This document shows, piece by piece, positions 52,601 through 54,366 of a DNA stretch of 64,000 nt; the first letter of the stretch is position 1; every line of letters starts with the position of its first letter. The DNA is taken from positions 2,333,721-2,397,720 of the forward strand of contig CM120648.1 in assembly GCA_051362555.1 (NCBI GenBank), given 5' to 3'. Source of the stretch: Lingula anatina. Taxonomy: Eukaryota; Animalia; Brachiopoda. The position numbers and the translations under genes are program-made. The notes below the pieces were generated by a model. That model had not been told where the DNA came from. It ran no database searches and saw nothing but the letters and a program-made list of their open reading frames with translations.

Positions 52601-54366
52601 AGTATGCAATGATTTTCAAAAATTTTGAAGCAAGAGAATAGATAGAAAACCATTCAACACACTTGCAGCAAGTATGTTTATATCAAACATGAATGTAGGT
52701 GATTTTTGTGATTTGAATGTGCTAATTGTAAAGGATCAATTGTTAGATTTGAAGAATGATCAATAGCGATGATTTGGCTTGCTAGTTACCTATATTTGAT
52801 TCAGATGTGGTGCGGGACAGATCGACATCAAAGACTTTTCCAAAAAGTATTGGCAGGAGCACATAGTATAAACAGATTTAGGTAACTAAAAGATTGTCTT
52901 GGTGGCAGAGCCATCTGTTGTCTGGGTTTGCATTGAAATGCATATTGGCCTGTTATTTTGCTGAATCTTTGATTAGGCAGATTTTGGCCCCTTTGCCATG
53001 GGCACCATGTCTGTCTATGCGGATTAACCCAACTCTGCAGGGACACTCGCTGACTGCAATCAGCTTAACTGAATGACATGCCTGCTCCTGGTATTGAGTA
53101 GAAAGCTGGTGATTGTATGAGTATGCTGGAAACAAGTGGAGGCTTGTCATTCAGTTAAGTCCCTGCAGTCCCTGGGTTGATTCAAGTAGACCAATGGTGT
53201 CTATGGGAATGGGGTCTTAGTTTTACTGTTACTGCTTGTGCATTGCTGAATGTTAATGATATATATGCTTTCTTAGCAAATTGCATTATTTTGCTTTTTA
53301 GTCATTTTTATTATTTCTTATTTAGAATCACATTTATTAATAATCCATATTGTCATTTGTATAGCAACCAGCTTTGTGTTATCTTTTTTTTTCTTCCAGT
53401 GCTGAAATGTGTTTTAACTGTTACAGTGTGTTGTTAGCATTACTTGTGGGTTAATTTCATATTAACATTGCATTTTCTTAGCATGATGAGTAGTTTAAAT
53501 TTTGTCACAGAGAATGATATACATATATATTTTTTTAACTGAACTTGCAAGCCTGTAGCCATTAATCTCAACAGGGGAATCTTCTCCAAAAATGGAAAGT
53601 TTTCACCCTCTTAGTTGACCCAATATGAGAAATGTTTCAGAACCTAGATCAAATTCTTATTCCAAGAGGAACTTATATGGCTAAAAGGGCAGTTTCTTAA
53701 AATTCCCCCCTCTCTCTCTCCCCCCCCCCCCCCCCCACCCTTCCTGCCTACAGGCCTGCTCAGGTTGCATGTTTTATTGTATACTAGCATGACGTGTGTC
53801 TTGCATGGTAATATATTGTTATAGATATGGTGTGGTACCATGAGAAAACAGTCAGCTCTACTGCGTATTAGAACAGGTGTCCACAGCCCTGGAAGGTTCA
53901 GGTACCTGAAGAGGAACATCAAAATTAATAAACAGATAATTAAACTAAATAGAAGAAGAAATAACTGTTGTATTTTTTTTTTAATATTGTTTTTATATTT
54001 TCATCATCATATGTGCATTGTTATTTATTTTCTTTGTTATTATTATTAATCTTTAATGTTAGAAACAACTATGTGCATGGTACCTTAAAGATTTTTTATA
54101 CTATATGATTTAAGAAAGAATAATTGCCAGTAGGAGAAATGAAATAAATCAAAACATTTACTATTTAGCAGCAAACTTAGACTCAAATTCTGTTGTTTTG
54201 TTTTTGTTTTTTTGTTTTTCATTCATAACAACAGCACTGATTTTTCATATCTTTATTTATTTTTAGAGTAATTGGTACTCTGTCCAATTCGGAGGACTTC
54301 TCCAACGCGTACAACTGTAAGCCTGGCAGTAAGATGAACCCAGTGAACAAATGTGCAGTGTGGTAG
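40676..54366 (+). CDS. Nep1: Neprilysin (Nep1/MME-MMEL1-like) M13 zinc metallopeptidase, ~769 aa, 21 exons per isoform with alternative exon 20
   Basis: Exons: 40676-40785, 43977-44110 (TM), 44421-44480, 45633-45794, 46683-46766, 47012-47214, 47651-47827, 48228-48317, 48439-48572, 48771-48864, 49184-49312, 49468-49566, 49797-49874, 50045-50207, 50511-50562, 50846-50913, 51231-51361, 51660-51725, 52017-52115, [52805-52881 or 53825-53901], 54267-54366 (sum 2310 nt). Motifs: [28 protein letters not shown] (NEP-type), [35 protein letters not shown]. First coding exon is least certain but phase-compatible. Confidence 0.92.
47576..47645. repeat. (TATTA)n microsatellite abutting the exon-7 acceptor
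   Basis: About 14 units followed directly by TTCAG|TTAGAT. Confidence 0.9.
50802..50841. repeat. (TTA)n microsatellite abutting the acceptor of the HEXXH exon
   Basis: About 13 units followed by ACAG|ATCACTC. Confidence 0.9.
52805..52881 (+). CDS. Nep1: Neprilysin alternative exon 20a ([26 protein letters not shown])
   Basis: tcag|ATGTGGTGC...TTTAG|gtaact; 77 nt, phase 0 to 2, no stop; homologous to 53825-53901 and to ECE exon 19297-19373. Confidence 0.8.
52986..53216. mobile_element. Harbinger-like MITE between the alternative exons (family C-type ends, family D core)
   Basis: Right end CTATGGGAATGGGGTC|TTA identical to the end of the 8354-8569 element; perfect internal inverted pairs CTTAACTGAATGACA/TGTCATTCAGTTAAG and CTGCAGGGAC/GTCCCTGCAG. 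Confidence 0.7.
53548..53758. mobile_element. MITE-like element (CAAGCCTGTAGCCA ... CTGCCTACAGGCCTG)
   Basis: Terminal inverted repeats; same family as 15728-15939. Confidence 0.65.
53825..53901 (+). CDS. Nep1: Neprilysin alternative exon 20b ([26 protein letters not shown])
   Basis: atag|ATATGGTGT...TTCAG|gtacct; 77 nt, phase 0 to 2; canonical VHSPG motif. Confidence 0.9.

Follow-up and report, generated by a model that had tools for sequence, protein, structure and literature searches.

Why should a neprilysin gene carry two versions of an exon that lines its active-site pocket, and what would the choice between them change? The question is raised by a 64,000-nucleotide (nt) stretch of DNA from the brachiopod Lingula anatina (assembly GCA_051362555.1, contig CM120648.1, forward-strand positions 2,333,721 to 2,397,720), the whole of which was analysed and is called the window here. 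Positions 40658..54366 (+) hold the L. anatina neprilysin gene, a member of the M13 peptidases, which a single constitutive exon matched at 99%. Between its exons 19 and 21 lie two homologous exons, 20a and 20b, which are probably old tandem-duplicated alternative exons of which one is spliced in; the choice likely alters the peptides that are cut by re-lining the S1'/S2' pocket, with the catalytic residues kept. The parts of the gene on which the argument turns are the following.

40658..54366, + strand: neprilysin (M13) gene, from residue 2 to the stop codon; 19 constitutive exons, 20a or 20b, and exon 21.
52017..52115, + strand: exon 19, the shared upstream exon, phase 0 at its end (sequence, reads, exon model).
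52805..52881, + strand: exon 20a, the divergent pocket version, with an HSIN motif, used in RefSeq isoform X2 (sequence, reads).
53825..53901, + strand: exon 20b, the canonical pocket version, with an HSPG motif, used in RefSeq isoforms X1 and X3 (sequence, RefSeq, about one read).
54267..54366, + strand: coding part of exon 21, the shared last exon, phase 2 at its start (sequence, reads, exon model).

Both alternative exons are 77 nt long, preceded by AG and followed by GT, entered in phase 0 and left in phase 2. Either one alone keeps the frame from exon 19 to the stop in exon 21, skipping both puts exon 21 out of frame, and joining both brings a stop six codons into 20b. That stop lies 58 nt before the last junction, just beyond the 50-55 nt of the nonsense-mediated decay rule, which comes from mammals; double-inclusion products would be removed by the frameshift, probably through such decay. 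The exons are identical at 36 of 77 nt and at 11 of 25 full-codon residues, and each of the 10 conserved residues other than Trp has a different synonymous codon in the two exons; synonymous sites are saturated. Their intron flanks are no more similar than those of other exon pairs (ranks 20, 82 and 158 of 210), from which it follows that the duplication is not recent. A preliminary description of this DNA, made from the letters alone, had reported two homologous 77-nt exons with phases 0/2, AG/GT ends and a frameshift if both or neither were included, and its coordinates and codons are borne out; the old duplication with both copies under protein-level selection that it proposed fits the saturated synonymous sites with kept residues and the unrelated flanks.

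When all six frames of the whole window were scanned with a segment profile built from 122 homologous segments, 20b scored 76, an exon of the upstream paralog 28 and 20a 25. The homologue median on this profile is 80, and 20a is the second lowest of all segments. The next best site in the window scored -21, so that the exon pair is not a chance resemblance and no third copy of exon 20 is present in the window as scanned.

Is each exon used? RNA was drawn from 8 of 9 raw-read runs carrying the same species label (run X3 left out), of which 6-30% of each was read; five of the eight cover the exons (X4, X6, X7, X8 and X9) and three do not (X1, X2 and X5). The joint from exon 19 to 20a (52115->52805) occurred 2, 18, 11, 14 and 2 times in runs X4, X7, X8, X9 and X6 (47 in total) and that from 20a to exon 21 (52881->54267) 1, 17, 7, 9 and 3 times (37 in total); the constitutive joint between exons 18 and 19 was seen 50 times. 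In the sampled runs the divergent 20a thus predominates and acts as the working default. A 21-exon model rebuilt from the window equals RefSeq isoforms X1 and X2 except at two residues, both outside exon 20; with so few mismatches and unchanged exon 20 peptides, the window represents another haplotype or assembly. All five named members of the Lingula protein cluster carry one exon or the other: isoforms X1 and X3 have 20b, and isoform X2, a partial model from another scaffold (P0003) and a MetaClust entry have 20a. The event is thus already in RefSeq as automatic models, though not described. The pair has the anatomy of mutually exclusive exons, and 20a is spliced to both common exons; for 20b there are about one read and the RefSeq models. 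The preliminary description had set its proposal against a locus at which 20a is never spliced and relatives lack a counterpart; reads join 20a on both sides, and two other phyla vary the segment.

What the choice would change is best seen against human neprilysin. The HExxH zinc motif, the GENIAD third ligand and the NAFY motif are all encoded by constitutive exons. Exon 20b aligns without gaps to human Val692-Arg717 and matches chain 1dmt of the Protein Data Bank (PDB) at residues 639-664, in agreement with the correspondence first proposed; an offset of 53 between 1dmt and human numbering, which we take to hold, places W, H, G and R at the published positions 693, 711, 714 and 717. Searched alone, 20a finds no PDB sequence at E<=10, and 20b finds neprilysin. 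In the human enzyme Cys694 forms a disulfide. The preliminary description correctly placed Trp693, Cys694, His711 and Arg717 inside the swapped segment, but these residues, like Ser712, are the same in both exons and it is their neighbours that change. Specifically, 20a and 20b differ at positions 692 (Met/Ile), 697 (Asp/Met), 710 (Ala/Val), 713 (Ile/Pro) and 714 (Asn/Gly), as well as in helix 699-708, so that exon choice would re-line the S1'/S2' pocket around a constant Trp693, Cys694, His711, Ser712 and Arg717. The position of human Asp709 is Gly in both Lingula exons, and Gly, Ala or Ser in most invertebrate relatives.

In human neprilysin, the inhibitor backbone is bound by Arg717, His711 is believed to stabilise the transition state, and Asp709, the partner of His711, is reported to be crucial for catalysis (PMC7822871). 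Docking poses place Trp693, Tyr697, Asp709, His711, Ser712 and Gly714 in the S2' pocket (PMC11997989), and M13 specificity is predicted to be determined by variation in this pocket (PMC2259306). When mutants of the human enzyme were screened, the largest single-mutant change of specificity was that of G714K and the second largest that of D709K; G714K alone raised activity on amyloid beta about 6-fold, lowered that on bradykinin 7.5-fold and weakened phosphoramidon binding (PMC4121237). The two Lingula enzymes may therefore be expected to have differing substrate or inhibitor profiles, with neuropeptides as the presumed substrates, and we infer that the use of 20b is tissue- or stage-specific. 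Modelling of both isoforms, which the preliminary description had proposed, gave AlphaFold models with mean predicted local distance difference test scores (pLDDT) of 89.5 and 90.0 and the same secondary structure across the segment (pLDDT over residues 721-750 of 95, 88 and 95 versus 95, 89 and 97), and the 20a model superposes on human neprilysin in Foldseek with a template modelling (TM) score of 0.95-0.96, a root-mean-square deviation of 1.4-1.5 and 46-47% identity. Both isoforms are thus predicted to keep the neprilysin fold; the models speak for fold compatibility, not for a functional difference.

Does the same segment vary in other animals? We compared 20 further protein clusters, with all members of each except for Crassostrea (15 of 91 members). 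All 11 RefSeq isoforms of one gene in the nemertean Lineus longissimus were included, and together they show four versions of exactly this segment: HSPG in seven isoforms and HSVG, HSIN and HSPS in one each, the remaining isoform skipping the segment and showing the frameshift that identical intron phases would produce (the phase being inferred from the peptide). One Lineus version shares the HSINRFR motif with Lingula 20a. In the hemichordate Ptychodera flava the two members, X1 and X2, differ only in the segment (HSPK versus HSVS). Trp693 is absent from the Lineus X5 and Ptychodera X2 versions. Each of the remaining 18 clusters, among them all 13 mollusc clusters, Owenia and the nemertean Tubulanus, has one version per gene among its listed members, and since gene models can miss alternative exons a single version in a cluster does not amount to absence. 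HSIN occurs in 4 of the 281 proteins collected (three from Lingula, one from Lineus); with 40 residues around 20a as query, the 120 listed of 135 candidates, mostly insect Nep4, held no new HSIN protein, and a pattern scan of metagenomes gave five matches, four of them not M13 genes.

Other exons may also vary in these clusters. Lineus isoform X3 (P0131) differs from P0134 by an alternative HExxH zinc-helix exon with four residue changes, a second candidate for a duplicated active-site exon; tblastn of the Lingula window found no second copy of the HExxH exon. In the chiton Liolophura, P0022 and P0155/P0154 carry two homologous versions, about 60 residues long, of the segment encoded by Lingula exon 6 (47012-47214), which makes this segment of the Liolophura neprilysin a candidate for another mutually exclusive pair. 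The scallop Argopecten has a RefSeq isoform without the exon 20 segment (P0149), which implies the same intron positions in the scallop.

How might one exon be chosen over the other? All splice sites are GT-AG, and the two exons lie 943 nt apart, too far for simple steric exclusion to be likely, except with a remote branch point. No docking site and selector of the Dscam type was found, all 12 flank-by-intron duplex tests giving z no lower than -1.5. Three local features stand out.

52783..52888, + strand: predicted RNA stem enclosing 20a, in which the acceptor-side tract at 52783-52801 is paired to the exon end and donor at 52870-52888.
53790..53854, + strand: predicted local hairpin on the 20b acceptor, with the AG in its loop; marginal.
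53029..53220, no strand assigned: dispersed repeat that lies in the intron separating 20a from 20b and contains a 27-nt inverted repeat (sequence, reads).

The stem over 20a, 19 nt long at -19.0 kcal/mol, is the best among 20 internal exons and was equalled by none of 500 shuffles; the 131-nt region around 20a folds better than 198 of 200 shuffles, with local pair probabilities of 0.6-0.8. The hairpin on the 20b acceptor comes first of 21 acceptors with marginal support (z -2.0; 5 of 150 shuffles), and the same acceptor scores low as a splice site and, at 8 of 17 positions, has the fewest pyrimidines of the 21. Exon 20b would then be weak by default, and a stem closing over 20a would hide both its ends and lead to the use of 20b; the weaker hairpin over the 20b acceptor may add to this control by local RNA structure. 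A difficulty for the model is the predominance of 20a, which requires a stem that is open most of the time. The dispersed repeat forms a strong hairpin (z -5.1), has copies at 40409-40509, 11499-11595 and 8553-8574, and in all runs collects reads from many other loci; it is probably a bystander. A search of Rfam returned one weak match, far below the cut-off, and none for the dispersed repeat.

How well does the reading of 20a and 20b as regulated, pocket-changing alternatives stand up? Several observations weigh against it. Coverage of 20b consists of a depth of 0.77 over the 101-nt bin 53822-53922 in run X7, with none in the neighbouring bins, which corresponds to about one read spanning the exon; depth is zero in four of the runs, and 20b makes up no more than about 11% in these samples. 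Of the four junctions that the preliminary description had put forward, the two of 20a were seen as given above, but neither 52115->53825 nor 53901->54267, nor any other joint into or out of 20b, is among the joints listed (threshold three reads). Joints from 20a to 20b and joints skipping both are likewise missing from that list, a comparison of low power with 20b so rare; for the four runs with zero depth over 20b, 10 further joints lie beyond those listed. The hairpin windows were picked after the inverted repeat had been seen, and the hairpins are predictions. Docking poses, and not a structure of the Lingula protein, supplied the S2' residue list; G714K alone was modest on most peptides, three others being left nearly unchanged (PMC4121237), and Gly-to-Asn is a milder change than Gly-to-Lys. 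Finally, few segments in the set diverge as far as 20a does, a degree of divergence that would suit a slower or partly inactive enzyme as well.

This last point leads to an alternative in which the switch is real but one of activity, the 20a form being slow, dead or a peptide-binding decoy, with the replacement of Pro713-Gly714 by Ile-Asn distorting the His711 loop. A set of 339 proteins yielded 128 distinct segments. Pro stands at position 713 in 121 of them, Leu in 3 and either Ile or Val in 4, all four of the latter being alternative-exon versions, and Gly714 is kept in 116; together with the second-lowest profile score of 20a and the loss of Trp693 from some alternative versions elsewhere (Lineus X5, Ptychodera X2), this gives the idea some substance. 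We nevertheless regard it as unlikely, for 20a retains Trp693, Cys694, His711, Ser712 and Arg717 and is the major transcript, the zinc motifs are constitutive, the predicted fold is unchanged, and human neprilysin with Lys714 is still active (PMC4121237). The imbalance of expression, with about one read for 20b and 47 joints into 20a, would instead suit an exon replacement under way, in which 20a works, 20b is a near-silent remnant and there is no regulated switch; the pyrimidine-poor 20b acceptor (8 of 17), its low splice-site score and its place within a predicted hairpin point the same way. A silent exon, however, would not stay as clean as 20b, which is canonical and intact (76 against the homologue median of 80) despite fully diverged synonymous sites, and whose peptide is the same in the window and in the RefSeq assembly, where two isoforms use it; replacement therefore seems quite improbable. 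That the second exon is an artefact of assembly or annotation, a collapsed allele or a paralog, can be given next to no weight. The reads do differ from the window at many sites, so that the species is polymorphic, and the ends of other exons are echoed locally, in short form, within the gene, yet an identity of 36 of 77 nt is far below the allelic level, the flanks are unrelated, both peptides recur in the RefSeq assembly (itself two residues different elsewhere), and reads link 20a to exons 19 and 21.

If 20a and 20b are alternative exons of some age, do they share an origin with those of Lineus and Ptychodera, or was the same exon duplicated repeatedly? Among 127 other segments, the best match of 20a is the Lineus X4 version (14 of 26 identical, score 80, mean 56), ahead of 20b, which scores 68 against 20a, and a segment tree joined 20a and Lineus X4 at 87/91, with the Lineus versions scattered and X2 nearest the annelid type, a likeness that would predict unannotated additional exons in annelids. 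With the segment taken out, Lingula and Lineus share a single lophotrochozoan clade (Shimodaira-Hasegawa-like approximate likelihood ratio test, SH-aLRT, 93) in a whole-protein tree that was a quick search, midpoint-rooted and without an outgroup. Against shared ancestry, the match of 20a to Lineus X4 is not reciprocal, X4 reaching scores as high as 96 against canonical segments. A divergent M13 gene, L004:121-1155 (about 31% identical, with altered NAFY and GENIAD motifs), carries HSINRFR in continuous coding sequence with no intron after it, and has an intron where Lingula intron 19 sits; once this gene was added to the segment tree, the support for 20a with Lineus X4 was gone. The hemichordate genes, moreover, group with arthropod Nep1 and not with Lingula. 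An approximately unbiased (AU) test does not reject duplication within species (p 0.19, 0.30 and 0.24), having no power with 26 columns. Of 42 tandem-exon events that human and fly have in common, only 7 were considered homologous (PMC9741552).

On sequence comparison, a common origin of the Lingula and Lineus arrays appears slightly favoured, and it is doubtful that the hemichordate pair would belong to the same origin. A broader scenario can be put forward tentatively, as one we would not yet bet on: a lophotrochozoan, possibly even bilaterian, ancestor may have had an array of S1'/S2' exons, a 'pocket cassette', of which two were kept in Lingula, four in Lineus and two in Ptychodera, turning one gene into a panel of neuropeptide peptidases, multiplied in Lineus by the HExxH exon, with molluscs having lost the array and using whole-gene duplicates.

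Both isoforms score above the Pfam cut-off for Peptidase_M13_N (425.6 bits) and Peptidase_M13 (244.4 and 247.5 bits), and a predicted helix at 55-81 on a hydrophobic stretch fits a type II membrane anchor. The NAYY motif marks the ECE subgroup of M13 (PMC2259306); the Lingula gene has NAFY in its place, and an M13 paralog upstream in tandem on the same strand (about 8787-19739) has NAYY. As the preliminary description stated of this ECE neighbour, the segment occurs there on a single exon, at 19297, the one copy found by profile and by tblastn. Within the neprilysin gene, the ends of exons 8 and 14 are echoed, short and decayed, at 48330-48390 and 50308-50371, just downstream of the donors; the echo of exon 14 covers the NAFY motif region again before running into a stop, and the listed reads take the normal donors. 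The region of the stop codon is repeated in the 3' untranslated region (54355-54387 / 54468-54501, 34 nt, 94% identical). Among the read differences listed, none falls inside 20a and constitutive exons have 32 over 1480 nt, 22 of them synonymous and 10 nonsynonymous; about 1.7 were expected in 20a, the listings stop short of 18 and 179 further rows, and this is not used as evidence. Runs X7-X9 show many fixed coding differences from the window, more than X4 and X6 and under one species label throughout, and possibly come from divergent populations or cryptic species.

Signalling by neuropeptides and hormones is terminated by M13 peptidases, and for neprilysin, itself a drug target, engineered changes of specificity have been made at positions within this segment. 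Lingula has two, Lineus four and Ptychodera two natural splice variants whose differences are confined to these 26 residues, and such sets offer a test, on the same background, of the prediction that S2' sets specificity. Either history is of interest, whether an exon array predating the split of brachiopods and nemerteans or the same active-site exon duplicated repeatedly in three phyla. No description of mutually exclusive exons in an M13 gene was found in the literature searched, subscription journals lying outside its coverage, and the main texts and text supplements of the tandem-exon catalogues, which may omit gene tables, name no M13 gene (PMC7954323; PMC9741552). In PMC8791509, the one paper found to contain both key terms, these occur in unrelated places. 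The preliminary statement that the event had not been described for an M13 gene thus stands as regards descriptions, though the isoforms were already annotated in RefSeq; new here is that Lineus and Ptychodera isoforms swap exactly this segment, in a system that is apparently undescribed.

Known M13 isoforms differ mainly at the N-terminus. The closest sequence relatives of the Lingula gene, the invertebrate Nep1/Nep4-type genes and the mollusc neprilysin paralogs, share VNAFY, HExxH and GENIAD with it; unlike it, the mollusc clusters (13 of 13) and one listed arthropod cluster have a single segment version among their listed members, and molluscs have two whole-gene neprilysin clades instead. 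Human neprilysin (MME) and its variant G399V/G714K (PDB 4cth) have the same fold, and position 714, inside the swapped segment, alters specificity and inhibitor sensitivity (PMC4121237); these are, however, engineered point mutants as opposed to natural splice variants, and the human enzyme has Asp709 where the Lingula exons have Gly. Homologous mutually exclusive exons, or tandem exon duplication substitutions, resemble the Lingula pair in their equal length, same phase, variable residues at a functional site, kept fold and presumed change of specificity, and nine events affecting catalytic sites have been counted (PMC7954323; PMC9741552 for the class, PMC7954323 for the count). By contrast, those catalogues are drawn from human and model organisms and do not extend to brachiopods, nemerteans or hemichordates (PMC7954323; PMC9741552). 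The closest likeness is found in the selectivity-filter exons of NALCN, where an invertebrate gene likewise has duplicated alternative exons in the part that determines specificity; these are present from flatworms to non-chordate deuterostomes, with one form left in vertebrates (PMC3557258). The NALCN exons differ from 20a and 20b in lining an ion-channel pore and not a peptidase pocket, and in that conservation and tissue expression have been shown for them (PMC3557258).
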